From the NCBI GenBank assembly GCA_016765095.1, contig JAESQQ010000050.1, positions 1 to 51,960 of the forward strand: a stretch of DNA of 51,960 nucleotides, in the 5' to 3' direction. The notes under the pieces were generated by a model. The model was not told where the DNA came from. It worked only from the letters and a program-made list of their open reading frames with translations, and made no database searches. The DNA is from Planctomycetota bacterium (lineage in GTDB: Bacteria > Planctomycetota > J058). Numbering within the stretch: position 1 is the stretch's first letter; each line of letters begins with the position of its first letter. A program made the position numbers and the translations under genes. Of this stretch, positions 9,177-37,698 are shown piece after piece.

Positions 9177-9295
9177 GCGGGTCTCCTGAGGCCTCGATCC
9201 GATCCGGTTCCAGCCCCAGGAGAGAGAACCGCCTGGGGCGACGAAGTTCGCCGACTTGGATCACGTGCCCGAGCTCGCAGCGGCTAGGTTCGTCG

Positions 9296-18021: not shown

Positions 18022-18035
18022 CCGCCGACAGCAAG

Positions 18036-21000: not shown

Positions 21001-22076
21001 GCAACGACCAATTGGCCAACCGCAGCAGGGAGGACATAGGAGAGGAAACCCTCGGTGCGCCGGACTGGATCAGATCTGACGTCATTGGAGCCAGACACGA
21101 AACTGATGGTATGAGCGGGAACCTCCCTCTAGCAGGAGGTGTCTCCAACAGTGAAACTGGGAACCCACCCAGCCCGAAGAGCGGAGCGTTTCCCCAACCC
21201 AGCCCGAAGAGCGGAGCGTCTCCCCGTCGAACTCGTAGCACGGGCACGAGCGGGAGCGACTCGGGCATCGAGGGGAGCGGTTCTAGTCGTGGGGGGACGA
21301 CAGAGTCCAGCCCAGGCGCAACGCGGTCTCCTTCCGACAACACTCGGAGCAGGACCAGCGAGCGCTCTAGTCGTCCACGCGATCGGATGACGAGCTACGT
21401 CGCCCGCGAGGATGCCGAGGAGAACATGCGACACCGCGATCGGCGCGAGTGGGAGAAGGGAGCGGAGGCAGGTAAGTTTGGTGAGGTGGTGGTGGTTGAA
21501 CACGAGCGAAACCAAGGTTGGATCGCACATCAAATGGACATCGAGAACCCCAATAACCCCGGATATGACATCGCTTCGTCGCCCAAGGTGAAGGATGAAC
21601 TCCCAGACATGGATCATCCGGACGCGCGCTACATCGAAGTGAAGAGCACAAGGGGCGCATGGGATGCGTATGGCGTGGGTCTCAGCGAGACACAGTTCAA
21701 GCTGGCTCAAGAGCTGGGGCGGCGCTGGTGGCTCTATGTAGTGGAACACGTCGACTCGAAGCGACCGGTGGTCCACGAGGTTCCCAACCCCCTAGTCGAC
21801 GCAGGACTTCAGTACCGCTTCGATGGCGTTTGGGCAGAGTGGGCGGCTCGGCAGCGAGAGGCCAGATCCACCGCGCCCGACGCTAGTGAACCGGCCTGCG
21901 ACCCTCAGGTCGGCAAGTGGTTCAAACAGATGCGGCGGACCGGCCAGACCTGGACCTTTCGTGTAGAGAAGATCTGGTTTGATCAGGCCAGCGGACGACG
22001 CTTAGCGCAGGTACTGCTCGCCACCGGCCAGACCCAGATCATCCAAAACTTGGACAACTGGGAGTCGAGCGACTGA
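18036..22076 (+). CDS. DUF3883-type giant protein (C-terminal PD-(D/E)xK nuclease-like domain), apparently 5'-truncated
   Basis: C-terminus GEVVVVEHERNQGW...NPGYDIASS...ARYIEVKSTRG...WWLYVVEH matches the DUF3883/NO-VEIN-type nuclease-like domain. The frame is open back through the IS66 right end to a stop at 17946-17948. The TTG start has no RBS. Relatives usually start with a sacsin-like GHKL ATPase, which is missing here. Confidence 0.7.
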   Translation: MGVIEIDIEDLYEFAEELALRDDGITDDWAAAVLEDLVRRSPKELKEDLCFLKKIEILPTSDGIRRPLAHGDTAALVLDSALAAPEDLLEEKLSVPILRGSPRLEEAAGRALRHFPPLISALTPEFVAKSLAGADSSGLGVVPWKESIPWEERLSALEFGDVKRLLDYLGRIRWDGFDADEDVRRVLRERLPLLTTRGGITRASASNLYRAIGVLPPLELKARVTLLDVGGDGWDSLAGALGVKALDAARLLIEQAVPFLKGEADEDSKEMVRAWVIREAPEVIREAEEKQELLKALRGAPLLPLRGEEGEVGAAVDSYRANTVEILDKLTKVLGPNPRVVVKKPPLGLSRGEWREIMGDLSVPSNPRTSDILLSILEAADQWLEAELREVATARLRGTYDYLNEKGRLAELDKFPLTQMALDRALVTISAQGGPTTLKPGSRILSGVLQHLAWIPAQPRLWSSDHDDFTGCLYKPSQVYRPGLRLLVCAARPILRFAEPLIEVRDLLGFASVDVTKLHEEQDFGVLGEQLGALLAVDPAELEDRDLYEFQRAVGSVYGELAQLADPGRSLREWSWSCLGSGPGGEIGVLLDGRWRCAESVFFDSQHIEPNQWIGSISGNKQAVAKQRPFLEAVGVRDKPGVCDWVRLLRGMHDSREGPLTNSDLHLALRALARLASLLREGYKTEPDGPVFVLSEDDTLIEASKSFEVDSPRIRALGNGFDLPSIKRVEDNIRVAVWGGVQQISHVARFANPTGLVVEHYPKSASVKSLIALYKDDAVVWSGLVARLRYHYAVCGHNARDVDLETFSEWRSGAVELARQLTLYVYDQLTVDLVIEGTGQENFALEEDYFVNHDAGEIHIVERELDFCLDQALSWLCLGREASGPEAAEAARLLSRVARSPQDARAILDRQNVSSPPDENERLADVDCEAIDADFPASGGEPDSEGSDEGVVSSNENGHEEDGAQQDGIEPDEEGAGTESADSHRLGVGNDQLANRSREDIGEETLGAPDWIRSDVIGARHETDGMSGNLPLAGGVSNSETGNPPSPKSGAFPQPSPKSGASPRRTRSTGTSGSDSGIEGSGSSRGGTTESSPGATRSPSDNTRSRTSERSSRPRDRMTSYVAREDAEENMRHRDRREWEKGAEAGKFGEVVVVEHERNQGWIAHQMDIENPNNPGYDIASSPKVKDELPDMDHPDARYIEVKSTRGAWDAYGVGLSETQFKLAQELGRRWWLYVVEHVDSKRPVVHEVPNPLVDAGLQYRFDGVWAEWAARQREARSTAPDASEPACDPQVGKWFKQMRRTGQTWTFRVEKIWFDQASGRRLAQVLLATGQTQIIQNLDNWESSD

Positions 22077-22077
22077 T

Positions 22078-23793
22078 ATGGCCCGCATGATTCCCACCCT
22101 GGACGCTCAAACTCTCGCTGCGGTTTCTTCTGCTGCTGAGCGCGAAGTCTATCGAGCCATGCGTGACAATCTCCCAAGCTCGGTCTGGGTTCTGCACGGC
22201 CTCTCTTTGCTCGCCAAAACCCGTGACGGCGCCCTTCGCGATCTCGAGGCCGATTTCGTGGTCTTCGACCGCGATCAGGGGCTCCTAGTGGTTGAGGTCA
22301 AGGGTGGTGGGGTGTCCTTCGACCCCCGTACATCCGAGTGGCACTCAATCGACCGACACAGAAATCGCCACGAGATCAAGGATCCCTTCGCCCAGGCCCG
22401 GCGGGCCATGTACGCCGTCCTCTACACCCTCAAAGAAGAGGGCCGGTGGCCCTCAGGTCGTGCGCCACGTCTGGTTGCCGCCCACGGTGCCCTGTTCCCC
22501 GACCTGGTTGACGTGGGGTCTCTTGTTCGACCAGGAATCGACGTGAGGCAGATCGGGGGCGCTGGGGCGCTGGAAGACCTGTCCAAGTGGTGTGCAACGC
22601 TGTTCGCTGCCTTTCGGGGTGAACAGGCAGGGGCGGGTGGACTTGGCTCCGCCGGCATGCAGGTCATTGATCAACTATTCTGTCGTCCTGTGGTGGTCCA
22701 GGCTCCGCTGGCCCTCGCGATAAGGCGCGAAGCCCGTCGGCAGGTGGAGTTGACGGTGCGACAGGCACTGGTGCTTCGCAGCCTTAGCCGGCAGCGCCAT
22801 GCCTTGGTGGCTGGCGGAGCAGGCACGGGGAAGACCCTGCTGGCGTTGGAGCAGGCTAGGGACTTCGCTCGCAAGGGGTTGCGCACAGCCCTGCTTTGCT
22901 TCAGCCGCCCCCTTGGCAAGTTCTTGGAGCGCCAGAACTCGGAGGACTTCGCATGTCTCACGACGTGTTCCTTCCACAAACTAGCCTACGACTGGATCGA
23001 GCGGGCCAAGCGCGAGCACAACTGGGACCCACTGACGCACGCACGGGAAGAGCACCCCAACGCCGATCACTACGACACCCACATGCCCATGGGTCTGGCG
23101 TACGCCTCGGAAGTTATTGAGGACCGTTTCGACGCCCTCGTTGTCGACGAAGGCCAAGACTTGCCGCCTGACGCATGGTTTGCGCTGCAATTGTTGCTGA
23201 CAGACGCTGAGGAGTCGCGTTTTCTCATCTTCTACGACCCCAATCAGGCCGTCTACGGAGACCGCAGTCACCTGCCCATCACCAAGGCGCCGTTCCTGCT
23301 TGTCGAGAACTGTCGGAACACACGTCCCATCCACGAGGCGGCCTATCGACACTACAAAGGTGACGCGATTGACCCTCCCGACATCGAGGGCGCAGGCATT
23401 GAGTTGATCAAGGAGCCCACACCTGTGCATCAGGCGCGCGTCATCCGGCGTCTAGTTGGGCGGCTGGTCACCACCGAGAAGGTCGCGCCCGAGCAGATCG
23501 CCGTGCTGCTCTGCGGTCGACACTCGCGCGGTCGCGTTGCGGCGTTGCAGCAAGCAGGCAGGCCCTCTGGTGCGTGCTGGAGCCATGAGCAACTCTGGGT
23601 GCCTGGCGCGGTTCTCGTTGACACTGCCCATCGCTTCAAGGGGCTTGAAGCCGCCGCGGTGATCCTCTGGCTTCACGACACGGTGGACGCCAATAGAGAC
23701 GTCGCCGACCTGTACGTGGGCTTGTCCCGAGCCCGCTCCCGGCTATGGGTGGTAGGCGCGCCTCATGCCCTCAAGAGGATTGGCTTGAACTGA
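22078..23793 (+). CDS. NERD-domain + SF1 (UvrD/AAA_19-like) helicase
   Basis: The N-terminal NERD pattern EREVYRAMRDNLP..VLHGL..LEADFVVFDRDQGLLVVEVKGG is followed by Walker A GGAGTGKT, VVDEGQDL, NCRNT and YVGLSRARSRLWVVG. ATG is 1 nt after the upstream stop. Confidence 0.85.
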   Translation: MARMIPTLDAQTLAAVSSAAEREVYRAMRDNLPSSVWVLHGLSLLAKTRDGALRDLEADFVVFDRDQGLLVVEVKGGGVSFDPRTSEWHSIDRHRNRHEIKDPFAQARRAMYAVLYTLKEEGRWPSGRAPRLVAAHGALFPDLVDVGSLVRPGIDVRQIGGAGALEDLSKWCATLFAAFRGEQAGAGGLGSAGMQVIDQLFCRPVVVQAPLALAIRREARRQVELTVRQALVLRSLSRQRHALVAGGAGTGKTLLALEQARDFARKGLRTALLCFSRPLGKFLERQNSEDFACLTTCSFHKLAYDWIERAKREHNWDPLTHAREEHPNADHYDTHMPMGLAYASEVIEDRFDALVVDEGQDLPPDAWFALQLLLTDAEESRFLIFYDPNQAVYGDRSHLPITKAPFLLVENCRNTRPIHEAAYRHYKGDAIDPPDIEGAGIELIKEPTPVHQARVIRRLVGRLVTTEKVAPEQIAVLLCGRHSRGRVAALQQAGRPSGACWSHEQLWVPGAVLVDTAHRFKGLEAAAVILWLHDTVDANRDVADLYVGLSRARSRLWVVGAPHALKRIGLN

Positions 23794-23880
23794 CCTACCT
23801 CCTTATGGCCGTCACCTTCACGAGTCACAGGTGATCCGGATTGTCTGGGTACACCGCAGTCGCCATGTCCCCTGCTCTAG

Positions 23881-23920
23881 CCCCCTTCCATCACCATTAG
23901 CCCCCTTCCATCACCATTAG
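23881..23920. repeat. Perfect 20-bp tandem duplication (CCCCCTTCCATCACCATTAG x2) within the IS1380 left end
   Basis: Positions 23881-23900 and 23901-23920 are identical. The unit contains most of the left terminal inverted repeat. Confidence 0.95.
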
Positions 23921-23995
23921 TGAAACAAGGACGTCGTACCTCGATGCCATAACACTGTTGCGAAACGACGAAACAGCAAAACGAGGGCGACGACC

Positions 23996-25387
23996 TTGAA
24001 GACAGAGTGTATTCCCACGGGCCTCGACTGCGGACGCCTGGGACGGCGCAAGATCACCCTCGGATTCGACGGCGGCAAGCTCTCCAGCGACGGTGGCGCG
24101 ATCCTGCTCCGAATGACGGAGCAGCGAACGGGAATCCTCTCGGGGTTCGCCACCGACTGCTTCCGAGACCACCGACTCCAAACTCGCGTGGAGCACTCCG
24201 TTGAGGACCTGCTCGCCCAGCGAGTCCTCGGCTACGAAGACCTCAACGACCACGACCAGATCCGCCACGATCCCCTCTTCGCGGTCGCTGTCGGCAAGCA
24301 AGCACCGGAAGGAAGAACGCGCCGAGCCGAGCAGGGCCCTGCCTTGGCGAGTAGCGCCACGCTCAACCGTCTCGAGCTCGCCACGCAAGATCACGAGCGG
24401 GATCGCTACAAGAAGATCGAGCTCGACTTCGAGGCGGCGGACCGCTTCTTCGTTCGGCAATTCCTCAAGCGATCAGGCGAGACGCCACCTCCCGAGATCG
24501 TGTTCGATCTCGACAACTCGGACATTCGCCTCCACGGCAACCAAGAGGGCCGCTTCTTCCACGCCTACTACCGGAGCTACTGCTATCTCCCGCTCTACGT
24601 GTTCTGCGGGGATCACCTGCTCGCCGCCCACCTCCAAACCGCCGACAAGGACGGAGCCAAAGACGCGATCCAAGTCTGCAAGGTGCTCGTCGCGGAGATC
24701 CGGGCCAAGTGGCCGGCGACGCGGATCGTCTTGCGCGGAGACTCGGGCTTCTGTCGAGACGCGCTCCTCTCGTGGTGCGAGTCCGAAGGGCTCGACTACG
24801 TCGTCGGCTTGGCCCGCAACTCACGCCTTCAGGAGGTGATCGCGGACGAACTCGCGTTGGCCGAAGACCTCTTCGAGTCGGGACTCCTGCCCGCACGGGT
24901 CTACGCCGACTTCGACTACGAGACCCTCGACTCGTGGAGCCGACCCAGGCGCGTGGTGGGCAAGGCTGAGCACCTCGAGAAGGGCTCAAACCCTCGCTTC
25001 ATAGTGACCTCCATGTCGAGAGACGAGGTTGAGGCTGACGTGCTTTACGAGCACGGTTACTGCCCACGCGGCGAAATGGAGAACCGGATCAAGGAGCTCT
25101 TCGGCACACGCACCAGCGGCGCGACGCTCCATGCGAACCAGATTCGGCTCTACTTCTCGGGCTTGGCCTACGTCCTCGTCCAGGCGCTTCGGGATCTCGG
25201 CCTGGCTGGGACCAGCCTCGCCAAGGCCCGCGCCGACACGATCCGGGTGAAGCTCCTCAAGATCGCCGCACGGGTGGAGATCACAGTCCGGAGGGTCTGG
25301 ATCAGGCTCTCCTCGACTTGCCCCTTCGCGAGGGCATTCCAAGAAGTCCACGAGAGACTCTTAGCCAGTCCCCAGATCGTTATGTAG
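23996..25387 (+). CDS. IS1380 family transposase
   Basis: ITLGFDGGKLSSDGGAILLRMTEQRTGI, HSVEDLLAQRVLGYEDLNDHDQIRHDPLF, YYRSYCYLPLYVF, LRGDSGF and NRIKEL are hallmark IS1380 (DDE_Tnp_1-associated) blocks. Confidence 0.9.
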   Translation: MKTECIPTGLDCGRLGRRKITLGFDGGKLSSDGGAILLRMTEQRTGILSGFATDCFRDHRLQTRVEHSVEDLLAQRVLGYEDLNDHDQIRHDPLFAVAVGKQAPEGRTRRAEQGPALASSATLNRLELATQDHERDRYKKIELDFEAADRFFVRQFLKRSGETPPPEIVFDLDNSDIRLHGNQEGRFFHAYYRSYCYLPLYVFCGDHLLAAHLQTADKDGAKDAIQVCKVLVAEIRAKWPATRIVLRGDSGFCRDALLSWCESEGLDYVVGLARNSRLQEVIADELALAEDLFESGLLPARVYADFDYETLDSWSRPRRVVGKAEHLEKGSNPRFIVTSMSRDEVEADVLYEHGYCPRGEMENRIKELFGTRTSGATLHANQIRLYFSGLAYVLVQALRDLGLAGTSLAKARADTIRVKLLKIAARVEITVRRVWIRLSSTCPFARAFQEVHERLLASPQIVM

Positions 25388-25753: not shown

Positions 25754-26476
25754 TCAGAATGCGTTGAGAACCTGCTGAACGAAGGGATCCTCAGGCCGGG
25801 TTTGAGGGTGCTCGGCAATCACCCATCGCCGCCCAGGCTCACTGGCCGCTCCCACGACGTAGCCTCCGCGCCAGCGCACTTTGAGGTTCAGCGCACTCGC
25901 GAAGGGCTCAAACCAGTCCCGACCAGAAAGGACGAGCACCCGCTTCGGCGACAGTTCGTCTAGCTCGCGCCGAATCACGCCGGGCAACCCATTGTTCATT
26001 TGAGCACGGCAGAGGATTGCGCCAGGGTTGCCGCTTCCCCCGCGGGAGAGCTTGTAGAGGTTGCTCCACGCCATGTGGCTGGGCCAGTGGTCGGTGCAGT
26101 CGGGGTCGACGCCAAGTCCTGCTTGGACTCGACGGATGACCCGCCAAAACGCTGACGTGTTGGTGTTGTAGCGCCCCCGCTGTCCTCGAAGACTCGTGAC
26201 CCACAACATGGGGCAGGCATCGGCGCGATTCGCCTCCGAAGCGTCACGGGCCCGACGAACGATCCGCTCTCGGCTACTTAGGCGAGCTAGGTCAGCTTGG
26301 CAGAAAGTCGTGTCCCATCCGTTCACCGCTCTACCCAGGACGAGCAGCTCCCCCTGGTAGCGGTGCCCCTTCATGGGCCAGAAAGCGTCGATCTCCGGAT
26401 GGCGAATTCGCCGTCCCCTGCCAACCGCCCCCAACATTGTCCTAAAGCTTGTCTCGTAGCCCTTCGACATCGCCAT
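25754..26476 (-). CDS. Hypothetical protein with weak uracil-DNA-glycosylase-superfamily-like block order
   Basis: 240 aa. LLVLGRAVNGWD (motif-A position), AWSNLYKLSRGGSGNPG (cf. UDG ..TN.vKcRP..NR.P), VLVLSGRDWF and VIAEHPQTRP (motif-B-like HP) occur in the order seen in family-4 UDGs. Similarity judged by eye only. Confidence 0.6.
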   Translation of the reverse strand: MAMSKGYETSFRTMLGAVGRGRRIRHPEIDAFWPMKGHRYQGELLVLGRAVNGWDTTFCQADLARLSSRERIVRRARDASEANRADACPMLWVTSLRGQRGRYNTNTSAFWRVIRRVQAGLGVDPDCTDHWPSHMAWSNLYKLSRGGSGNPGAILCRAQMNNGLPGVIRRELDELSPKRVLVLSGRDWFEPFASALNLKVRWRGGYVVGAASEPGRRWVIAEHPQTRPEDPFVQQVLNAF

Positions 26477-26634
26477 CTAACGCTCTCCTCAGCCATGACC
26501 AGCGGGCCGGGCCACGGGATGGTCCCACGCGCCAGCTAGCCGACCTCGTGGGCATGAGCTCTGCTGGGAAGGGTGAGCGGGTTCGCTTGAGTGACGTCTG
26601 CACGTAGGGCAACTGTCCAGCCAAGCGCTCCGGG

Positions 26635-26784
26635 CTAGCGCACGTCGACGGAGAGCACCCAGCCAACGTCCTTCTTGGTGTTGAGAGCCTGCTTGAAATC
26701 GAGCTTCTCGTTGTCTCTCTTCGCCAGCAGTAGGTGAGTTCGTAGGGGCTCATGCTCACCGCCGAATGTGACAGGTTCGGTCAT
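26635..26784 (-). CDS. Small hypothetical ORF (49 aa)
   Basis: MTEPVTFGGEHEPLRTHLLLAKRDNEKLDFKQALNTKKDVGWVLSVDVR. Balanced composition with GC-rich third positions. Lies in the divergent region upstream of the nuclease gene. No motif. Confidence 0.3.
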   Translation of the reverse strand: MTEPVTFGGEHEPLRTHLLLAKRDNEKLDFKQALNTKKDVGWVLSVDVR

Positions 26785-26855
26785 GCCGCGCAATCGAGGA
26801 GGCTGAGGTGGGCGTGAGCCGTCCACAGGGGCTACCATCGTCGACTGGAGGGGCG

Positions 26856-27998
26856 ATGGCGAGGAAGACTACGACCGGAGATCCGAGGCTCGACGCCCTC
26901 GCAGGGGGAGGGCCTAAGCGGTCCCCGAATGTCCGCGCGCTGGCGCGGTTCGCTGCCAACTCAGACTGCCAGCTCGCGACGGTCGGCTTCGCGGCTCGCA
27001 TCGACTTCGACAAGCTGTTGGTGGGAACTGAGTTCGAGGTCCCGTTCGGACAGTCCCCGTTCGCCTTTCGCCGGGGCGATCGCTTCGAGGATCTCCTCCG
27101 CAAGAACGACTACGATCCGCTGCTAGGACTGTTCCGGGATCACCTCGGGTTCAAGGTGTCGGACGCGCGCGTCAAGAACCTCAGGGGGGGCGCGCGGAAC
27201 CGACGGGGAATGGAGAAGCGCGCCAAGCAGACGGAGGACGAGATCCGCGCCATTATCCAAGGCTCGAAGTCCGCCCCAAACCTGCTGGACGGGGCGGTTC
27301 TCACGCGCGAGATCGCTGGCGTTCGCTCCTACTTCGAAGCTGACGCCATCGCTGCCCAGTTCGACGGCCCGATTCGCGCAGGCGAGGTCAAGTCCTTCCC
27401 CACCGTCGACGGCCAGGCCGACCCCGATAAGGTGGGGGCCGCGGTCGCCCAGGTGTCGATATACATTCTGTTGCTGCGGGAGCTCGTCGCGCGGCTGGGC
27501 GGCGATCCGGAGCAGGCCGTTTCGGACGAGGCCCTGATCATCACGCCGAAGAACACCGGACTGCAACCAACCATGTGCGTACGCCCGGTTCGCGCGCACG
27601 TCGAGCGTGCTCGCCGAATCCTCGACTCGACACCCAGCGCCACGGAGATCGCAGACAGCCTACCGAGGAAGCTCCCGACTTTCGGCTCTATCGCGGACGT
27701 GTCTGCCAGGGAGTCCAAGCGGGTCGACGGTGCTCGCAAGCTAATCGAGGTCATTGGGAACAATTACAGGCCTTCTTGCCTGGCAGCCTGCGGGCTGTCC
27801 CGAATGTGCCGCCACCGTGCGCACGAGCGGGGTGATCCCCAGGTGGTGGGAGGCTCCCTGGAGCGACTGGTCCCGGGGATCAGCTCGCTGGATCGGGTAC
27901 ACAAGCTCGCGGCGGGAGGACGGCCGAAGAAGGAGGAGGCAGCCGTCGCCGAGCAGCTGAAGCGCGCTGCCACCCTCCGCGAGCGGTACGCCAAGTGA
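26856..27998 (+). CDS. Cas4/RecB-family PD-(D/E)xK nuclease with a putative 4-Cys (Fe-S) cluster
   Basis: GGAGGGG precedes ATG 26856. In track-ORF numbering: D179 (FEADAI), E193-V-K195 (GEVKSF), Q215-VSI-Y219 (RecB-family QxxxY), and Cys54 plus C324-x3-C328-x5-C334 (SCLAACGLSRMC), reminiscent of Cas4/AddB C..CxxCx5C. Confidence 0.75.
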   Translation: MARKTTTGDPRLDALAGGGPKRSPNVRALARFAANSDCQLATVGFAARIDFDKLLVGTEFEVPFGQSPFAFRRGDRFEDLLRKNDYDPLLGLFRDHLGFKVSDARVKNLRGGARNRRGMEKRAKQTEDEIRAIIQGSKSAPNLLDGAVLTREIAGVRSYFEADAIAAQFDGPIRAGEVKSFPTVDGQADPDKVGAAVAQVSIYILLLRELVARLGGDPEQAVSDEALIITPKNTGLQPTMCVRPVRAHVERARRILDSTPSATEIADSLPRKLPTFGSIADVSARESKRVDGARKLIEVIGNNYRPSCLAACGLSRMCRHRAHERGDPQVVGGSLERLVPGISSLDRVHKLAAGGRPKKEEAAVAEQLKRAATLRERYAK

Positions 27999-29443
27999 AC
28001 TACCTCGATGTGGTCCTGATCGCCGAGGCGCGAGCGAAGAAGCGGGCGATTCGCTCTGCCCTCAGGCGCCACATTCACCTCACCCGCGATCCCCTGGGCA
28101 TTGTCCTCTGGCAGCTTGGGGCAGAGCCCTTTACAGCAGCCGCCACGGCGTGGGGCTTCGGACCCAAGGAGCCACAGGTCTCCGTTCCGGGGGAGCCCAG
28201 GAACCGAACCCTCTCCTTTCGAGCACTGCTTCGGCTCGCGAAGGACTTCAACCCTTGGTTCGAGTCAGGCCAGCGCCCCGACGGGAAGACACGATCGGAC
28301 CTTCCCCAGATCGTAGTACCAAACCGTGGAACTCTGACCCTGCTCCGCCGCCTCGGACGGCGCCTGGCGTTTCTTCCCACGACCGGCGAGTGGGCCGCGG
28401 ATCCCGAGTTGGTGCGTATGGGCAAGCACCTTGCGTTTCTCTCGGAGCACGCCCGCACCCCGGGCCAGTCGCTGGTAGTGGTCCTCACGGATCTCCTGTC
28501 CACACACTGGGCGACTGAGCTCTCAAGTATGGAGGCGCAGAGCCTCCCTGCCTTGGAGGCCTGGATCGAGCCGCCGAAGGGCATGAGCGGCTACGACGCC
28601 GCGCGCGCAGCTGAGAGGCTCGAGATCGGCCCGGTCCCAGGCTTGTCTGAGGACGAGGTCATGGACGGGCTCCTGGACCGGTTCAACGAGGAACGAGATC
28701 GCGAGACCGACGAGTCGATTGTGGGTCCGCTCCGCAAGCCCATCGAGAAGCACTACCGAAAGCTCGTGCAGCGAGGTTGGCCGTTCATTTGGCGAGTGCT
28801 GAAGAGGGAACGAGGCCTGTCCGAGGCCGCCTCGGTGAGTCGCCGGTGGACCGAGGATAAGAGGGCCATCGACTGGCACCTCGAGTGGGTCGTGTTGAAG
28901 GGCGGGCACCTGAGCACGCGCTACACCCACAAGCGGGCGGCGATTACCCTGAGACGCTGGGAGGACGCCCAGTCGCAACTCGGGGCCGAACGCGCCCTCG
29001 ACGATCCGCTTCGCATGATCGCCTCCATGCTGAAGAACGAGGCCGTGGTCGGGGTCGTCGTGAACGTGGACGAGGAGAACAGGGAGCAAGGGCCGGTCAA
29101 GCTAGTTAGGCGGCCCGTTGTCACGCTCGAAACCGAGCGGCCCTGCACAATGCCCATTGGGAAGAAACTGTGGTGGTCGGGGCACCCGAAAGGCAAACAC
29201 TACGTCCTGCGCTCCGCTGTGGACACTCCCAGAGGCGGCTCACGGCTGGAGCTCTGCCTGCAGACGAGTCATCGCTCGGTCGTTCGCCCTGCAGAGGGTA
29301 AGGAGGCGATCTTCTCCAGCCACCACGTCAAGAGTCCCTTTTTCGCCCAATGGCCCGACGAACTCCCCTGGACCCATGTCGACTCAGCGACCGCAACGAC
29401 TCGGTCCGTGGAAGACGCCACCGAGGCGTGGGGGGGAGCGTGA
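27995..29443 (+). CDS. Orphan 482-aa protein, no recognisable domain
   Basis: GTG 27995 overlaps the nuclease stop (GTGA) and its own stop overlaps the helicase ATG (TGATG at 29441-29445). Uninterrupted, normal composition. I could not assign any motif. Confidence 0.7.
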   Translation: MNYLDVVLIAEARAKKRAIRSALRRHIHLTRDPLGIVLWQLGAEPFTAAATAWGFGPKEPQVSVPGEPRNRTLSFRALLRLAKDFNPWFESGQRPDGKTRSDLPQIVVPNRGTLTLLRRLGRRLAFLPTTGEWAADPELVRMGKHLAFLSEHARTPGQSLVVVLTDLLSTHWATELSSMEAQSLPALEAWIEPPKGMSGYDAARAAERLEIGPVPGLSEDEVMDGLLDRFNEERDRETDESIVGPLRKPIEKHYRKLVQRGWPFIWRVLKRERGLSEAASVSRRWTEDKRAIDWHLEWVVLKGGHLSTRYTHKRAAITLRRWEDAQSQLGAERALDDPLRMIASMLKNEAVVGVVVNVDEENREQGPVKLVRRPVVTLETERPCTMPIGKKLWWSGHPKGKHYVLRSAVDTPRGGSRLELCLQTSHRSVVRPAEGKEAIFSSHHVKSPFFAQWPDELPWTHVDSATATTRSVEDATEAWGGA

Positions 29444-30798
29444 TGAAGCTCTACAACGAAGCTGTGGTGAAGGCGGCAGATGCTGCCGTCCGCCGTGCGA
29501 TCAAGGGCGCGCTGTCTTCGCTGTCCACCAGGGGAGCTGTCGTGGGGATTGCCCCGGCAGGCGCTGGGAAGTCGTACGCGATTGGCACTGCAGTCCTCGC
29601 AGCGCGGGAAAAGGGACTCCGGGTCGTGGTGGCAACGCCCACGAACGAGCAGGCGTACGCGTTGGTGCACGACTTGGCGGTGCGTCTCGGAAAGCGCAAA
29701 GACAAGGTCACGTTCCTGCCGGCAGTCGGTCGGAGCCTCCCCGCAGTTCACCGTCACCCCAAGGTAGTGGAGAGCAAGGCTCGCGACGCTGGGGCTGCGA
29801 CGATCCGAGTAGGCACCCTCGACAAGCTGGGGGACGCATTCGCCCGGGGCGACCTGAGGGGGGCAGACCTGCTCCTGATCGACGAGGCCTACCAGGCCAA
29901 CGCGGTGCATTACTACAAGGTGGCGGGGATCGCGAAGCGCCACCTTCTCATGGGCGACAGCGGGCAGCTTGCGCCCTTCTCGACGGCACCCGAAGCCGAC
30001 CGGTGGCGTGGACTGGCCGAGGATCCCCTCCTTCGTGCCGTCGAGGTCCTGGACCGCAACCACCCGGGGACCCAGAAGGAGCGGCTCCCGATCACGCGTC
30101 GGCTTGACCCGCGGGCGGTCCCAGTCGTCAGCTCTTTCTATCCGGGGCACCCCTTTCAGGCCGCCGTCCTCCCCGGGGTGCGAGACCTCACATTCCGCGC
30201 GCGCCGGTCTCGCTCGTGGAAGGTGGAGGACAAGCTCCTCGAGCACGCCGCCCTCTCGGGGTGGGCGCACGCCGAGCTCCCGGAGAGCGCGGTCCTCGTG
30301 GACGATCCCGCGGTGGCCAACCTCCTCACTCGCCTAGCCAAGCGGCTGCTGGCCCGCGGGCCGGTGACGGTCTGCGAACGCAGCCGCAAGAAGCGTAAGC
30401 TGACACAGAGCGACATAGTGGTCGTCGTCAGCCACAACGACCAGAAGGACCGACTCAGGATCCTCCTCGACGAAATCGGCCTCCCCGACGTCGTCGTCAG
30501 CACGGCGAACAAGGTCCAGGGCCTCACCTTCGAGGTCGTCCTCGCCTGGCACCCGCTGGCGGGTCTGCAGGAGGCTGACGAGTTCCACTTGGATCCCGGA
30601 CGCATGTGCGTGATCCTGACGCGCCACCGCCACGCCTGCATTGTCGTAGGGCGCGAGGGAGACCGAAAGCTCGTGGAGGGCATTCCTCCTCCGACTCCGG
30701 CCTATCCGGGCTGGGACCTCGATCCCGCCCTTGATGGCTGGTACGCCCACGAGGGCGTATTCAACACGTTGAGTCCACACCGAATCGCGGTTTCATGA
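29443..30798 (+). CDS. SF1 helicase (Upf1/RecD-like, AAA_11/12/30-type)
   Basis: Walker A APAGAGKS, Ia ATPTNEQA, II LLLIDEAYQ, III LMGDSGQLAPF, V STANKVQGLTFEVVL, VI CVILTRHRHACIVVG. Start taken at ATG 29443, not the upstream track start 29350. Confidence 0.85.
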   Translation: MKLYNEAVVKAADAAVRRAIKGALSSLSTRGAVVGIAPAGAGKSYAIGTAVLAAREKGLRVVVATPTNEQAYALVHDLAVRLGKRKDKVTFLPAVGRSLPAVHRHPKVVESKARDAGAATIRVGTLDKLGDAFARGDLRGADLLLIDEAYQANAVHYYKVAGIAKRHLLMGDSGQLAPFSTAPEADRWRGLAEDPLLRAVEVLDRNHPGTQKERLPITRRLDPRAVPVVSSFYPGHPFQAAVLPGVRDLTFRARRSRSWKVEDKLLEHAALSGWAHAELPESAVLVDDPAVANLLTRLAKRLLARGPVTVCERSRKKRKLTQSDIVVVVSHNDQKDRLRILLDEIGLPDVVVSTANKVQGLTFEVVLAWHPLAGLQEADEFHLDPGRMCVILTRHRHACIVVGREGDRKLVEGIPPPTPAYPGWDLDPALDGWYAHEGVFNTLSPHRIAVS

Positions 30799-31137
30799 CC
30801 CCGCGAACAGTGCTGCTTGAGACAGCGGAGCAATCCGCAAGCCCACGCGGAAGAGAGCGCTGGCCCAACTCAAACCCCGACGAGGACTGGTCCGCGCAAA
30901 GCCCCGGGTCGGGCTCGCCCGAGACGATCGCGCCTCACGAATCTTGGCGTAGGCTACTGCCATGCGTTCGATGGCGTCACACTTGCTGGTAAGCCGACTT
31001 ATCATCCCGGCTCAGATCTCCCCTTGGAGAGGCATGGCTCAGGTACCGTTTTTCACCCACAGGCTGAACAATGACAGCCTCGCCTCGGCGCCACAGGAGG
31101 CGAACCGTGAGAACTCCGAATTGGGGTCCACGGGGTG

Positions 31138-33894
31138 ATGGCTGAACCTCCACTGCGCCTGTCCCCCGAACAGAAAAAGGTAGTCGACCACCGCGGCGGC
31201 CCGCTTCAGGTCATTGCCTGCGCAGGTTCGGGAAAGACTGAATCGCTCTCTCGCAGAGTAGCGGCCCTGATCACTGAAGGTACAGACCCGTCGTCGATCG
31301 TCGCCTTCACCTTCACTGAGCGAGCTGCCTCTGAACTGAAAGCGCGGATCGTTCGGCGAGTAGCAGAGAGCCTGGGCGAGCAGTTCCTCGACCGTCTCGG
31401 CCCGATGTTCGTAGGCACGATCCACGGGTATTGCTTTCGGCTGCTCCAGGACCATGTCCCTCGATTCGGAAATTACGACGTGCTCGACGAGCATAGACAC
31501 GCGGGTCTCCTTAGCAGGGAATACAAGCGCCTGGGACTCTCGGCACTGGGACCGAGGCATTGGAGTCCAATTCGCGAATTCACGCACAACGTGGACGTGA
31601 TTGGGAACGAACTGATCGATACAGCTGCCCTTGCAGGAACGCCACTCGGTGTCTGCTACGCGGCATATCGGTCCATGCTGGACCGATACCACTTCATCAC
31701 GTTCGGCCAGATCATCTCCCACGCCGTAGATGCCCTCGAAGATCCCTCGGTGTTTGCGCACGTGCACGCGCCTTTGCGGCACCTATTGGTCGACGAATAC
31801 CAGGACGTCAACCCGGCTCAAGAGCGCTTGATCGAATTGTTGGCACGAGACCCCGTGGAGCTTTGCGTGGTTGGCGATGACGACCAGGCGATTTACCAGT
31901 GGCGAGGCTCGGACCTCCGAAACATCCTGGAGTTCGCGAATCGTCGGGCGGGCACTACGACGGTGAATCTGGCCACCAACCGGCGAAGCCGGCCCGGCAT
32001 AGTGGCGAAGGCCAATTCGTTTGCGGCGACGATTCCTCACCGCTTGGCCAAGTCTATGCAGCATGCCCGAGAGGAGGCACCACACGAAATCGTGCCATGG
32101 TCCTCCGCGACCGAGGAAGAAGAGACGACCACTATCGCCGCCACTATTGCGCGGCTGCATAGTGCTGGGCATCGCTATGCCGACATCGCCGTCCTCTACC
32201 GCTCAGTGCGCACGTCAGCGCCTCCGCTCATCGAAGCGCTCCGCGAACGCAGGATTCCCTTTCAGTGTGGCGGAAGGACTGGTCTTTTCCTACAGAGTGA
32301 GATCGCTCTGTTCGGTGAGACCTTCGCCTGGCTCGTCGATGGTGACTGGAAGGACGAGAGATACGGGAAGCCTCGAAAGGCTGATCTTGGCCAACTGGTG
32401 GCGGGGTATCAGGCTGCCTTCGGAGACGTGCAATTCACCGTAGGGATCGAGCGCTACCTGGAGGACTGGAAGCGCTTTACGCTTCGTGGGAATCGCACAG
32501 TGAGTCTCGTGGGCGATTTCTATCGGTTGTTGGCCGCTCTTGGAGTCGATTCCGTGGACTCAGACACTGCCGAAGGGGCGGCGCGACTGGGCAGCTATGC
32601 CCGCTTCGCCCACGTCCTTGGCGACTTCGAAGCGGTCACACGCCGAGGGCGGTTTGTCGAGACGGACAGCGGCCGGGCATTCAAGGGCGGGCGGGATCGT
32701 GGGAAACACTACCTGCGAGGCCTAGCAAACTACCTTGTGCATTACGCGCGTGACGCCTACGAGGAGTTTGAGGGGGAGGAGGTGGCCTCCCTCGACGCAG
32801 TTAGTATTCTCACGGTCCATCAGGCCAAGGGCCTCGAGTGGTCCATTGTCTTCATACCGGCTCTGGTGGTCGGGCGCTTCCCCGCACGGGCTGCTGGGCG
32901 CACCCAAGACTGGCTTCTTCCCCAGGAGGTTTTCCCAGCTCACAAGCGTGTGCGATATGAGGGAGGAGACAGCGAAGAACGGCGCTTGTTTTACGTTGCC
33001 CTTACACGGGCTCGTGACCTTGTCTACCTCTCTTGCTTTGAGCGGAAGAAGAACAGATTCCAGCCTTCGCCGTACCTACTCGAGGTGGCGGGCTCGATAG
33101 TTCGGCTTGAGGCGGATCTTCCACTACCAGTCGCGACTTTGGCTGGAAGCGAAGAACCACCGCCGCTGGAGGTCTCTTTCTCGAATCTCGCCTTGTTCCA
33201 GGACTGTGGCTACCGCTACCGCCTGCGAGAGGTCTTCGGCTTCGCCTCGGAGATCGCCCTCGAACTCGGATACGGACGAGCGGTGCATCACGTTCTCCGG
33301 CAGCTCGCTGAAGTGGCACGAGAGCGGGGAGCAGTTCCCGAGCCAGAAGAAGTAGACGCGATCATCGAATCCGAGTTCTACCTGCCGTTCGCAAACGCTC
33401 CCGCCTTCGCCCGGATGCGCGCTGCAGCCGCTCGAGTCGTGCGGACCTATAGCACTGAATACGCTGAGGACCTCCAACGCGTCTTCGCGACCGAGCGTCC
33501 CTTTGAACTCCATGTTGCAGACGGGCTGGTGATTGGGCGTGCGGACGTGATCCTCGACAAGGAGGGCGGCGAGGTAGGGGACCTCGCGATCGTCGATTAC
33601 AAGACCACCAATGATGGGACTCACGACGAGCGCTATCGGATGCAGCTCGCAGTTTACGCAGCCGCGGGGAGAGGCGAGGGTCTGATCGTTAGAGCCGCCT
33701 ACCTTCATGAACTGCGCGGCGGCACTCGCAGCGATGTGGATGTCAGCGAGGAGACCACAGCGACGGCCATCCGATCAGCGTCCGAGGCGATCTCCTCCAT
33801 TCGAAGAGGAGAGTTCCGCGCTCGCCCTGACTCCCAGAAATGCAAGGTCTGCGATCTTGCTCAGATCTGCTCCCACAGGGCTGGACCGGCCTGA
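31138..33894 (+). CDS. UvrD/Rep-type SF1A helicase fused to a C-terminal Cas4/AddB-like Fe-S PD-(D/E)xK nuclease
   Basis: LSPEQKKVV..ACAGSGKT, LLVDEYQDVNPAQ, VGDDDQAIYQWRG, NRRS, TVHQAKGLEW, YVALTRAR. Then the nuclease: FQDCGYRY, GRADVIL, LAIVDYKT, QLAVY, and the terminal CKVCDLAQIC (CxxCx5C). Confidence 0.9.
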   Translation: MAEPPLRLSPEQKKVVDHRGGPLQVIACAGSGKTESLSRRVAALITEGTDPSSIVAFTFTERAASELKARIVRRVAESLGEQFLDRLGPMFVGTIHGYCFRLLQDHVPRFGNYDVLDEHRHAGLLSREYKRLGLSALGPRHWSPIREFTHNVDVIGNELIDTAALAGTPLGVCYAAYRSMLDRYHFITFGQIISHAVDALEDPSVFAHVHAPLRHLLVDEYQDVNPAQERLIELLARDPVELCVVGDDDQAIYQWRGSDLRNILEFANRRAGTTTVNLATNRRSRPGIVAKANSFAATIPHRLAKSMQHAREEAPHEIVPWSSATEEEETTTIAATIARLHSAGHRYADIAVLYRSVRTSAPPLIEALRERRIPFQCGGRTGLFLQSEIALFGETFAWLVDGDWKDERYGKPRKADLGQLVAGYQAAFGDVQFTVGIERYLEDWKRFTLRGNRTVSLVGDFYRLLAALGVDSVDSDTAEGAARLGSYARFAHVLGDFEAVTRRGRFVETDSGRAFKGGRDRGKHYLRGLANYLVHYARDAYEEFEGEEVASLDAVSILTVHQAKGLEWSIVFIPALVVGRFPARAAGRTQDWLLPQEVFPAHKRVRYEGGDSEERRLFYVALTRARDLVYLSCFERKKNRFQPSPYLLEVAGSIVRLEADLPLPVATLAGSEEPPPLEVSFSNLALFQDCGYRYRLREVFGFASEIALELGYGRAVHHVLRQLAEVARERGAVPEPEEVDAIIESEFYLPFANAPAFARMRAAAARVVRTYSTEYAEDLQRVFATERPFELHVADGLVIGRADVILDKEGGEVGDLAIVDYKTTNDGTHDERYRMQLAVYAAAGRGEGLIVRAAYLHELRGGTRSDVDVSEETTATAIRSASEAISSIRRGEFRARPDSQKCKVCDLAQICSHRAGPA

Positions 33895-33908
33895 ATAGGA
33901 AAGACAAT

Positions 33909-36900
33909 ATGGCCCGAAAAAAACGAAAGAAGACGGTTTCCTCCCCGGTTGAAACGGCCGACTACCGCCACCTTGAGAAGAAGCGCAAGAACATCCCGCC
34001 GGCGGCGATCGCTGCCGAAGGGCACGTTCCCGAGGTCCCAAAGGCGGAATACCTGTATTGTCCACACCTTCCTCCGGTCTTGCGTCACGACCCCGACGGC
34101 GGTGCCGACGCGCTCCCCGACCTCATCGCTGAGGCTGGACGTCGTGTCTTGTCACCGACAGAACAGCGCACGCTAGCGGATGCTCTCAGCAGCCAAGAGC
34201 CTTGGCTCGAATGGTCGGAGAAGCGGGAACAGCAACGACGCCGGCTGTTCGAGGTCGACCCTGTCGCACTACATATTCACGAACGCGTCAGCACACGAGC
34301 GGTCCTTCGTGCTGCATACCGAGAGGACGTGCAGCGCGAGCTGTTCGCGGATCCGCAGCTGCCATACCAGCAAGAGGTGAAGTTTTATCAGCACGATATT
34401 GACTGGACGAATCGACTTATCTTGGGCGACAGCCTTCAGGTGATGTCGTCCTTGGCTCGCCGAGAGAACCTCGCGGGCAAGGTCCAAATGATCTACCTCG
34501 ATCCTCCATACGGAATCAAATACAAGAGCAACTTCCAGCCTTTGGTAGGGCGAGTTGATGTCAAGGACAAGGACAGCGACCTCACGCGGCAACCCGAGAT
34601 GGTCAAAGCCTTCCGAGACACCTGGGAACTTGGGGTCCACTCCTATCTGTCGTACCTCCGCGACCGTCTAATCGTTGCAAAGGAGCTCTTGGCGGATACA
34701 GGAAGCCTCTTCGTGCAGATGGGCCTCGATAATGTGCATCGCGTGCGCGCCCTGCTCGACGAGGTGTTTGGCCCGCAGAATTTTGTCTCCCAAATCGCCT
34801 TCGTGAAGACGACGAGTTCAACGAGCAAGCAGCTGTCTTCGGTCTACGACCAGATCCTCTGGTACCGGAAGACCGATCAAATGAAGTATCGGCCGATCTT
34901 CCTGGAGAAGAGGCCAGGGGAGACGGGTGCGACGGGGTACAAGACAGTGCTCCTGCGCAGCGGGGAGACGCTCCCAAGCAGCAGGTTCATCGTCGACGGC
35001 GCCCTCCAGTTGCCTGAGGGTGCTGACCTGATCTTCGCCGACAACTACACGTCCCAAAGCCCTGGATCCCGATACGATGTGCTTCTTGACGGGCGCACGT
35101 ACCGTCCGGAGCCCGGTTACTGGAAGACCGACGAAGGTGGAATGGCCCGCATTCTCAAGGCGGGCCGACTGGGCGGCAGCGCGAAGCGAAAGTACCCAGG
35201 GTATCTCCGACGAATCTCAGATTTTTCTGCCTATCCGTTAGGAAACGTATGGACAGACACCCTCGGGCAAAACCAGTTCGGCGGCAAGAAGTGCTATGCG
35301 ACACAGACTGCCTTGAAGGTCATCCAGCGCTGCATGCACATGACAACCGACCCTGGCGACCTGGTACTTGACCCTACATGCGGCAGCGGCACGACCGCTC
35401 TCCTCGCCGAATAGTGGGGGCGGCGTTGGATCACGATCGACACGGGCCGGGTCGCTCTGACGACTGCACGGCAGCGACTCCTGACGGCACGGTATCACTA
35501 TTACCGCCTACGGCGCGTCAGTGCTCAGGACCTGAAGCGCAACCCGCAGGGAGCCTGGTTGCGGGATACTCGCTCGGAGATTTCGGGACCTTGTACGATC
35601 GCTTGCAAGACCGTCCCTCACATCCAGCCGGCAAGCGGGGTCGCCCAAAATGCGAATCTAGATCCGATCTTCGACAAGCACGAATCGTTGCTGGAGGAGG
35701 CCCTTGCTCTTTGCAATACCGCTCTCAGCAAGGTATCTGCTGCGACTCGGAAGCAACTCAGCGAGAAGCTAGCTTCGAAGCAGCAGGAGGAGGGAAAGGG
35801 ATCAGTCACCGAGGGTGACCGGCGGCGCTGGAGCCTCCCTGCGACGGGGAAGAGCTTCGAACACTGGACGGTCCCCTTTGAGGCGGACAACGCCTGGCCA
35901 GCTGCCTTGCGACGGGCTGTTGTCGCCTACCGCACCACCTGGCGCAAGAAGCAGGATGAGATCGACGCTTGTATTGCAGCAAACGGAGACCAGGAAGATC
36001 TGCTTGACGAACCAGAAATTGTGAAAGGCGTCCTCCGGGTCACCGGACCGTTCACGGTTGAGGGCGTACGGCCAGCCGAACTCTCGCTCGGCTCCGAGAC
36101 CTCACTCGAGGTGGAAGGGACCAGCAGCGCAGGCAAGAACTTGCACGCCTATCTAACGCGAATGGTGCACTTGTTGCGAGACGATGGACTCACGTTTCTT
36201 GACAACAAGGTGCGCCGTTTTCACCGCCTAGAGGCGGTTTTTGAAGCTTCCACTGGATCCGCCATTCATGCCGAAGGCAGTTTCGATGAGAGCGATCCCG
36301 AAGGATCCAATGCCGTTGCGGTCGGCTTCGGGCCTCAATACGGACCAGTGACTGCGGAGCAGGTCGAGGGACTCATTCGCGCGAGCAAGCGTTACGACGA
36401 GCTAGTCATTGCCGGTTTTAGTTTCGACGCAGAGGCATCTGCGGCTTTGCAAGACGTGACTCACCCGGCCTTGCGCGTCCACCAAGCCTACATTCGGCCC
36501 GATGAGAATGCGGCGATGGACGGGCTGCTCAAGCCCGACCGAGGGAGCCAGCTTTTCTCGGTGTTCGGCCAGCCCGAGGTGATCCTCACCCAGGCTGGAG
36601 ACGGATGTTGGACCTGCGACCTGGCAGGAGTCGACATCTATGACCCAGTCAACAACATCGTGAGATCGACTGGGGCAGAGAAGGTGGCGGCATGGTTCCT
36701 TGACACTGACTACGATGGGCGGTGCTTCTGTATCTCGCAGGCGTTTTTCCCCGACAAGACTGCCTGGGAGAAGATCGCCAAGGCGCTAGGCTTGGACACC
36801 GACGCTGAGCCGTTTAGTTCCTACAGCTCCACCACGTCGCTTCCGTTCCGAGGTGGCGAGAGCAGGAAGATCGCAGTCAAAGTGATCGACCCTCGAGGCA

Positions 36901-36935
36901 ATGAGGTAATGACCGTGCGAAAGCTCGAGGACTAG
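33909..36935 (+). pseudogene. ~1008-codon beta-class N6/N4 DNA methyltransferase (type III Mod-like) interrupted by one in-frame TAG
   Basis: AGGAAAG precedes ATG 33909, 14 nt after the UvrD stop. Motif IV IYLDPPYG, motif I [9 protein letters not shown]. ..ALLAE-TAG(35412-35414)[15 protein letters not shown] continues in the same frame into track ORF 35559-36935. Homologues usually read AEQWGRRWI. Confidence 0.8.
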
Positions 36936-36938
36936 CCA

Positions 36939-37304
36939 GTGGCCAAGAAGGCGAAGCGCCGGAAGGCATCTAGTCCAAACAGCAAGGGCGAGCGACTCCC
37001 TACCCAAGCAGTCGCGAATCCCGTCGTCAATAGCCCATATGAACAGCCGAAGAGACACTGGGTCTATCAGGTAGGTGAGGGGGAGCCCTACTTGATGGAC
37101 GGGCGGCGTTCCGCCAGCTATTTCTACAAGACGAAGAAGACCGGCACGACCCAGGATGGGCTGTTTCGGGACGAGCAGAGTGACGAGCTTCCGCTCGTCA
37201 ATCGGCTGAGGCACGACGTCGAGCGCTGGCGCGGGTCCAACTACCGAGGAGCCACGCCAGCAACACGTGACCTCCTTATCTATTGGGTGCCCATCTCTTA
37301 CTGA
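36939..37304 (+). pseudogene. N-terminal ~115 codons of a type III Res-like (DEAD/DEAH helicase) restriction subunit, truncated by ISKra4
   Basis: NPVVNSPYEQPKRHWVY...DGRRSASYF...LVNRLRHDVERWRGSNYRGATPATRDLLIYW matches the N-terminus of Res-type partners of long Mod methylases. The IS inverted repeat begins at 37285 and no helicase motifs follow. Confidence 0.65.
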
Positions 37305-37484
37305 CGGAGTCTGCAAGGGTTTACGACGCGCCAGGGCACCGTCCGGAGCAAATTGGTCATGAGGCAATGAGGCAACGCTGAGGGGCCTGTTCATGGACGA
37401 CGTAACGCTGGGGGCGAGACGTCAAGGAAGTGGCCATTGCTAAGGTTGAGAAGGCCAACCAACGAACACAGCCGGAGGGCACCA

Positions 37485-37630
37485 ATGGAATCGGACCCCA
37501 CGACCGACCTGACGCAATTGGGGAGCTTCGCTGAACTCCGAGATTTCCTCGACCGACGGCGAGAGGAGCCGGGCTCGTTCGAGGACTTCGAACTCGAACT
37601 CGGGAAACGGATGCGTGCCATTGAGAAGGG
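37485..37630 (+). pseudogene. Duplicated N-terminal fragment of the ISKra4 transposase
   Basis: MESDPTTDLTQLGSFAELRDFLDRRREEPGSFEDFELELGKRMRAIEK parallels MGSHTTTDLTEFESHAELRDFLDRRREEPGSFEDFERGLAKRFRTLEN of the full gene. 63 bp are identical (37529-37591 = 37743-37805). Confidence 0.75.
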
Positions 37631-37698
37631 CAAGGGAGTGGCCTCTGCTAGTGTTCGGAAAGGGTCGGTAGCCAACCGACACCAACTGGAGGCCAGCG

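Follow-up and report, generated by a model that had tools for sequence, protein, structure and literature searches.

The question raised by this locus is what kind of system is specified by three overlapping genes that lie together on the forward strand of a contig from a Planctomycetota bacterium (GenBank assembly GCA_016765095.1, contig JAESQQ010000050.1), of which positions 1 to 51,960 were analyzed as a single stretch, hereafter the window. The first gene, g1 (26856..27998), codes for a 380-aa Cas4/RecB-like PD-(D/E)XK nuclease with a predicted four-cysteine site of the 4Fe-4S type; the second, g2 (27995..29443), for a 482-aa putative adaptor or sensor subunit of an unannotated family; and the third, g3 (29443..30798), for a 451-aa minimal superfamily 1B (SF1B) helicase core, with RecA1 and RecA2 domains, of the Upf1/IGHMBP2/Dna2 branch. 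Helicases paired with nucleases, as in Hachiman, Gabija, Nhi and DdmD, form a main class of bacterial immunity, and how they distinguish foreign from self DNA is for the most part not understood. The evidence from gene structure, conservation, catalytic motifs, the fold assignments of g1 and g3, synteny, gene fusions, cassette mobility and neighborhoods tips modestly toward the view that the trio specifies one heterotrimeric nuclease–adaptor–helicase complex, carried on a mobile cassette of ~4.2 kb and most likely deployed in defense against phages or plasmids. It may be regarded as a credible candidate for a new defense system, built like a split version of the eukaryotic nuclease-helicase Dna2. 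Such a system would be of interest on several counts: the nuclease, the regulatory or adaptor part and the motor reside on three separate proteins, each of which could be taken away or exchanged on its own; g1 and g2 both belong to families without a description in public profile libraries; and the trio is found in phyla little covered by defense studies—Myxococcota, Planctomycetota and Actinomycetota.

The first step is to ask whether the three genes belong together, and here the junctions are telling. An initial annotation, made from the letters of the window, had proposed that the three open reading frames (ORFs) are coupled by the overlaps GTGA (27995–27998) and TGATG (29441–29445), and this is confirmed, with overlaps recurring across 32 loci. 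At the first junction (GCCAAGTGAAC), the g1 stop TGA (27996–27998) lies over the g2 start GTG (27995–27997), consistent with translational coupling. At the second (GCGTGATGAAG), the g2 stop TGA (29441–29443) lies over the g3 start ATG (29443–29445), and within the longer string GTGATG (29440..29445, forward strand) it shares bases with either this ATG or an alternative in-frame GTG at 29440; the lengths of the g3 homologs (447–460 aa) fit the start at 29443. The g1 homologs likewise start at the position of the ATG at 26856, directly 5' of which stands a Shine-Dalgarno-like GGAGGGG, and not at the GTG at 26808. All g1 residues are numbered here from this ATG; the initial annotation had singled out the right residues and named the same start but counted from GTG 26808, such that its numbers are 16 too high. 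Across the 32 loci, g1 and g2 overlap in 25, by 4 nt in 23 of these and by 1 nt in the other two, and the g2/g3 junction overlaps in 19 (15 of them by 4 nt), with a gap of at most 7 nt in a further 10, mostly of 3–7 nt. Since they are kept at most junctions in these loci, the overlaps are not a product of chance. The non-coding stretch 5' of g1 (26600..26855, forward strand) probably carries the cassette's own promoter; a scan for the sigma-70 consensus detected none in this stretch, and Rfam, tRNA and repeat scans returned nothing linked to the cassette.

The same cohesion is seen in the distribution of the genes, which proved to be conserved as a unit. Among the tblastn locus records, the order g1-g2-g3 is kept in 25 of 26, or 24 of 25 distinct loci given that two of the records (L002 and L013) cover one and the same piece of DNA, and the sole exception (L018) is a contig that ends before g3. 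The loci come from Chondromyces, Sorangium, Polyangiaceae, Zavarzinella, Gemmata, Cyanothece, Nonomuraea, Streptomyces and Acrocarpospora, as well as from metagenome-assembled genomes (MAGs) labelled Acidobacteriaceae, Verrucomicrobiota and Alcaligenaceae. Two gene fusions join neighboring members of the trio—P0471, a short g1 with g2, and P0501, g2 with a g3 whose Walker A motif is intact—and neither is close to the proteins of the window (24–35% identity); for P0361 and P0378, a frameshift artefact is a possible origin. In the Sorangium strains So ce1335 and So ce134, 90% identical DNA extends only from ~240 nt 5' of g1 to the g3 stop, with unrelated flanks, and the window shares with its closest relative, L005, a single block that spans exactly 26849–30797. 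The cassette is therefore a discrete mobile element, ~4.2 kb in size. Its occurrence is rare and very patchy: one-genome-per-species scans of 185,579 species yielded at least 22 loci (a pattern-limited lower bound), a set of 72,556 plasmid records gave four matches, and a set of 50,697 phage records gave none. As a separate observation, the two closest cassette relatives, L005 and L026, derive from MAGs labelled "uncultured Enterobacterales" whose contigs have a guanine–cytosine (GC) content of 68–70%, and these labels are probably wrong.

Mobility of this kind raises the alternative that the cassette serves its carrier element rather than the host, by way of plasmid or integrative and conjugative element maintenance, the processing of linear-replicon ends or competition between elements. 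This would be in keeping with its position on the linear Streptomyces plasmids L034 and L035, where it lies no more than ~15 kb from a replicon end, with the integrase, excisionase or resolvase genes close to it in L002, L033 and the ZVAs_TEB contig, and with the insertion sequence (IS) elements that flank it in the window, L004 and L027. Nevertheless, most copies are chromosomal and have no recognizable element backbone, and the absence of the trio from the phage records is accompanied by the lack of a PHROG family for g1 or g2. Moreover, defense cassettes commonly ride such elements, such that a setting of this kind cannot discriminate between host defense and service to the carrier. On the whole, we hold a purely carrier-serving role to be unlikely.

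What, then, do the three proteins do? For g1, the answer comes from motifs and fold. A search of a 5.8-billion-protein set recovered 140 homologs, from which a family alignment of 34 members with 30–68% identity was examined. The RecB-type catalytic set and four cysteines that had been pointed out in the initial annotation hold up well: conservation of D163, E177-x-K179 and Q199xxxY203 is complete or at least 90%, and C38, C308, C312 and C318 do not vary at all. The last three are spaced CX3CX5C (C308x3C312x5C318), as against the usual CX2CX5C, and the four-Cys set predicts an Fe-S cluster. Also conserved in the alignment are E78, R319 right after C318 and a GQSPFA motif. In the AlphaFold2 model (predicted local distance difference test, pLDDT, 89), D163 and E177/K179 fall on neighboring strands with Q199/Y203 on the next helix, the placement expected for this fold. 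Foldseek against the PDB retrieves MGME1 (1.7e-4), EXO5 (2.2e-4), Cas4 SSO0001 (1.6e-3) and ACE1, an Argonaute-associated Cas4 (1.7e-3), along with RecE, lambda exonuclease, AdnAB and Cas4-Cas1. Sequence-based comparisons are silent by comparison: neither g1 nor any of the 34 aligned family members has a match in Pfam, NCBIfam, PADLOC v2 or PHROGs, and PDB sequence searches with the single sequence and with the family profile returned only noise. The protein is too diverged for sequence models. Thus, g1 shares with the Cas4/EXO5/MGME1/AddB-type nucleases both the fold and the D...ExK...QxxxY set, and with Cas4 and EXO5 the arrangement of one plus three cysteines, but at 380 aa it is almost double the size of Cas4 and is not CRISPR- or Argonaute-associated.

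The helicase, in turn, is placed by its motifs and its family profile. The proposal that g3 belongs to helicase superfamily 1 (SF1) is borne out by motifs I, Ia, II, III, V and VI, each at least 90% conserved in 118 homologs, with the Walker A motif APAGAGKS at 37–44, and the protein passes the Pfam cut-offs for AAA_30 (1.9e-9) and AAA_12 (6.7e-8). A search of PDB sequences with the single sequence found nothing, and the g3 family profile matched IGHMBP2 at 6.3e-9, Upf1 at 1.9e-6, DNA2 at 8e-4 and RecD2 only at 0.078, as well as NAM7 and a SETX-like helicase. As judged by these profile matches, the nearest kin of g3 are Upf1, IGHMBP2 and Dna2, with RecD2 farther off. The distinction matters in that the region before motif I consists of a stalk and a beta-barrel in the Upf1 branch and not in the RecD2 branch (PMC4716839). 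Residues 22–81 of g3 align to 197–256 of IGHMBP2, and since residue 22 pairs with IGHMBP2 197 and the Walker A motif is already at 37–44, g3 has no room for a barrel. By this alignment, it is a bare RecA1–RecA2 core that lacks the ~175 N-terminal stalk and barrel residues ahead of motif I. Translocation in the 5'->3' direction is expected by analogy with SF1B helicases of the Upf1/Dna2 type.

This brings us to g2, which had been described as an orphan without a recognizable motif. The second half of that description stands, as there is no family match in Pfam, NCBIfam, PADLOC or PHROGs, even with 30 family members as queries; the first does not, because g2 has 217 matches in a word-indexed search and 753 representative clusters at E<=1e-3 (218 at E<=1e-30) among 1.84 billion representatives. 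Residues kept at 24–31% identity include R25-H26, Q105, N110, R122, E180, D288, D337, G353, P432 and W459, of which W459, P432, D337, G353 and Q105 are invariant even at that distance. The AlphaFold2 model (pLDDT 89, predicted template modelling score 0.85) comprises an N-terminal alpha/beta domain (~1–175), long helices (~215–346), a small C-terminal beta-barrel (~350–441) and a disordered tail. Within this tail lies a conserved P-W-T-H motif (458–461), which, positioned just before g3, looks like a candidate docking peptide. PDB sequence searches with the single sequence and the family profile gave noise only, Foldseek against the PDB and BFVD had no match at E<=1e-3, the search of viral structures retrieved generic small barrels only, and a profile–profile comparison of g2 with g1 detected no relationship. 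The sole recurring partial Foldseek matches are to Upf1, Sen1 and SETX, over ~145 columns with a probability of 0.69–0.97, non-significant E-values of 0.065–0.14 and a template modelling (TM) score of ~0.15. Since these fall in the same helicase branch as g3, they are a hint, if not proof, that the last g2 helices and the barrel of the model might be the stalk and 1B barrel that g3 is without. The N-terminal domain, with elements in the order alpha-beta-beta-beta-alpha-beta and with E44, E67 and R69 as conceivable active-site residues, was also considered as a second PD-(D/E)XK nuclease; this was rejected as the three residues are lost in distant homologs and no nuclease fold is matched.

Taken side by side, these assignments make Dna2 the closest architecture by analogy. 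In the mouse structure (PMC4716839), a Cas4/RecB-type Fe-S nuclease is followed by a beta-barrel and helical stalk and then by an Upf1-branch SF1B helicase (1A, 2A), and the gene order of the trio parallels this domain order, with the g3 profile matching DNA2 as noted above. There are also differences: the trio consists of three polypeptides where Dna2 is one; g2 adds ~300 residues with no recognized fold; no OB domain is seen; the Cys spacing is CX3CX5C; and the trio is bacterial, mobile and found in defense islands. The equivalence of barrel and stalk is itself tentative.

From this likeness we infer how the parts might form a complex and act. The g3 protein would be an ATP-driven motor of the Upf1/Dna2 type that travels 5'->3' along a single strand of nucleic acid, in all likelihood single-stranded DNA (ssDNA). 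The g1 protein would be a metal-dependent nuclease of the Cas4/EXO5 type, stapled by its Fe-S cluster, that cuts the strand delivered by g3, as in Dna2. Bridging the two, g2 would probably lend g3 its missing stalk and 1B barrel through the C-terminal helices and beta-barrel, and its conserved N-terminal and middle domains would probably act as a sensor or gate, either sensing a signal or restraining the enzyme. The likely targets would be free ends, flaps and ssDNA replication intermediates of phages and plasmids, resulting in the degradation of invader DNA. In its most specific form, that of a bacterial split Dna2 in which the g2/g3 boundary divides an Upf1-type helicase between the 1B barrel and RecA1, and g2 adds a new sensor domain that controls the Fe-S nuclease on foreign DNA, the proposal is a tentative possibility that we would not press. 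Were it true, the trio would represent a new and phylogenetically wide anti-phage or anti-plasmid family, and the Dna2 architecture would gain a prokaryotic relative whose accessory domains reside on a subunit of their own that can be exchanged; a Dna2-like layout would further bear on the origin of the accessory domains of Dna2 and Upf1.

Might the trio nonetheless be a known system under another guise? Profile and structure searches assign it to no named system, in agreement with the initial annotation: in PADLOC v2, including its PDC and HEC sets, the window g1 and g2 have no match (E<=1), nor do the non-helicase components of the Streptomyces, Cyanothece and Gemmata homologs or the two fusion proteins (E<=0.01), and literature searches returned no description of the trio. 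The comparison that had been drawn was with a split, Nhi-like arrangement. The staphylococcal Nhi does couple a PD-(D/E)XK nuclease to an SF1B helicase with structural relatives in Upf1, DNA2 and Dda, and is anti-phage (bioRxiv 10.1101/776245), but it unites an HsdR-like nuclease and a helicase of the DUF2075 (PF09848) type in one polypeptide, whereas the trio has a Cas4-like g1 with four cysteines and an extra 482-aa subunit. The idea of a split nuclease–helicase with an additional subunit survives, and "split Dna2-like" is the better name for it, because the trio pairs a Cas4-type Fe-S nuclease with an Upf1-branch helicase. Membership in Nhi itself was rejected given the three genes and a g3 that matches neither PF09848 nor the PADLOC Nhi model.

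Hachiman (PMC12278908) resembles the trio in that adjacent genes encode a nuclease–helicase complex, with the helicase as the presumed gate of the nuclease; it differs in having two components, HamA with DUF1837 and HamB with a superfamily 2 (SF2) helicase, rather than three with an SF1 g3. It was rejected on this last feature and on the absence of a PADLOC HamA or HamB match for g1–g3. Gabija, which combines the OLD/TOPRIM ATPase-nuclease GajA with the UvrD-like helicase GajB, was rejected as there is no GajA match and g3 is not UvrD-like. Weak PADLOC matches link the g3-family helicases to MkoA and MkoC of Mokosh, which are Upf1-branch helicases, but they span generic helicase motifs only (E 1e-4 to 1e-10), the trio is without a PLD nuclease, and Mokosh has no counterpart of g1 or g2; membership in both Mokosh and Dpd was rejected on defining features. 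The six systems reported from Streptomyces (bioRxiv 10.1101/2025.01.08.631966) were also ruled out, the manual review there having dropped mobile-element-like communities, for which integrases, recombinases and helicases were the markers.

The next question is whether the company kept by the trio at other loci fits a defense role. Known defense genes lie within 10 kb at ~13–15 of the 21 annotated loci, by a hand count with no background rate, and methyltransferase (MTase) or restriction-modification (R-M) genes are the commonest neighbors overall. Type I R-M genes adjoin the Zavarzinella trio; HsdM, GmrSD, HsdR and an MZB-domain helicase are found by that of Gemmata; and HsdR-like genes occur near the trio in three further loci. 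L037 has two TIR proteins, with an SNF2-type helicase upstream. In two metagenomic contigs, L038 (2908–8108) and ZVAs_TEB, the DNA just upstream of the trio codes for a CBS protein, for a dynamin-like GTPase of ~816 aa and for an SNF2/DEAD helicase of ~910 aa, and a DNA methyltransferase is among the neighbors in L038 and not in the ZVAs_TEB contig. A pooled PADLOC scan of 94 flank proteins was swamped by generic Ser/Thr-kinase models and was uninformative.

On the Streptomyces plasmids L034–L036 the cassette takes the form of a four-gene variant, which adjoins a divergently transcribed pair of genes for SbcD and an SMC-family, SbcC-like ATPase; a complete Wadjet JetABCD lies on its other side in Streptomyces plasmids, with no Wadjet seen in L034. 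The extra member is a conserved gene directly 5' of g1, for a protein of ~260–290 aa with an N-terminal coiled coil, which occurs in Actinomycetota as well as in MAGs that bear the labels Acidobacteriaceae, Gemmataceae and Verrucomicrobiota. Besides L034–L036, it is present in L003 (9213–10004), L016, L018, L024 and L004, the last with two copies (9079–9951 and 17848–18645), the second adjoining an SMC-family ATPase gene. No family match or PADLOC v2 model was found for this fourth gene, and no homolog in the window or in the examined loci beyond these eight.

The head-to-head placement with an SbcD and SMC-ATPase pair evokes a different interpretation, namely an accessory end-resection machine for DNA repair or recombination—a small analog of Dna2, AddAB or AdnAB—acquired sporadically by large-genome soil bacteria and with no role in immunity. 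It accords with the nearest folds of g1, which are those of the repair nucleases MGME1, EXO5, RecE, lambda exonuclease and AdnAB, with the presence of DNA2 among the relatives of g3 and with the housekeeping flanks of several loci. It sits less well with the very patchy spread across the scanned species, the unrelated insertion sites among strains of one genus and the frequent R-M, Wadjet, TIR and GmrSD neighbors alongside IS elements or integrases. Hence, we view a repair role as rather unlikely, and were it to be correct the trio would still represent a new kind of end-resection enzyme.

The reading preferred here, of a defense complex with a Dna2-like division of labor, has several observations weighing against it. 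The association with defense genes is a manual count without background control, and the neighbors are purely housekeeping at the loci from Chondromyces (L001), Nonomuraea (L003) and Acrocarpospora (L032). The stalk and barrel assignment draws on Foldseek matches that are non-significant (E 0.065–0.14, TM ~0.15), and small beta-barrels resemble many structures. As for the substrate, Upf1-branch helicases can act on RNA. Finally, g1 has no match to PF01930 (Cas_Cas4) or PF12705 (PDDEXK_1) at E<=1, with none at E<=0.1 in the 34 family members, and a profile–profile comparison of the g1 family with the PDDEXK/Cas4 domain of the neighboring gene detected no relationship; judged by its fold and motifs, g1 is a Cas4/RecB-superfamily nuclease with the Cys pattern of the Fe-S members, while standing outside those Pfam sequence families.

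In the window itself, the cassette sits in a defense island, as had been anticipated, with Tiamat-like, NERD-UvrD and type III-like R-M genes around the trio. Upstream are an IS66-family transposase gene (16509–17948), a gene for a 1346-aa DUF3883/NOV_C protein (18036–22076), the C-terminal part of which matches the Tiamat TmtA models at 2.8e-52, a NERD-UvrD helicase gene (22078–23793; PADLOC RTasNERD-Hel at 1.9e-50, also candidate C3a187) and a DDE_Tnp_1_4 transposase gene (23996–25387). The DUF3883 and NERD-UvrD genes are one base apart and bracketed by the two transposases, and to judge from their sequences they look like a two-gene defense module of their own. Between the second IS and g1 lies a 240-aa ORF on the minus strand (25754–26476) with no family match.

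Downstream of the trio follow an intact UvrD-PDDEXK helicase-nuclease gene (31135–33894) and a type III-like methyltransferase in two ORFs (33840–35414 and 35559–36935). One PADLOC model, PDLC03632 (983 positions), spans both ORFs, covering 15–506 and 611–982, and the L005 homolog is a single 998-aa protein; for these reasons the window methyltransferase is taken as split or disrupted, and it may be a pseudogene. This block suggests yet another possibility, that in the window the trio and the helicase-nuclease and methyltransferase (31135–36935) are the two halves of one larger system of the restriction type. The closest relative, L005, also has homologs of both modules side by side, and MTase and R-M genes predominate among the neighbors, as seen above; yet the UvrD–MTase block of L005 is inverted and on the other side of the trio, the trio occurs without it at most loci, and in the window the methyltransferase is split while the trio is intact. 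We consider such a composite system very unlikely.

Base composition, too, sets the cassette apart from its surroundings. The initial annotation had placed the trio in a lower-GC island, which is true of the modules on either side, with a GC of 0.59–0.62 (18000–24000 and 31000–38000), but not of the trio itself, which at 0.64–0.67 (26000–31000) equals the rest of the window. This contrast suggests that the trio and the flanking modules have separate acquisition histories. Farther from the trio, a sigma-54-type activator is encoded at 12683–14260, with a match to PADLOC RtcR_PspF2 (CARF-AAA-HTH) at 5.8e-103 over the AAA-HTH part, and beyond the methyltransferase an unannotated ORF (37699–39162) begins within the span of a 159-nt direct repeat (37469–37627 and 37683–37841; 82% identity, 214-nt spacing), which straddles its start.

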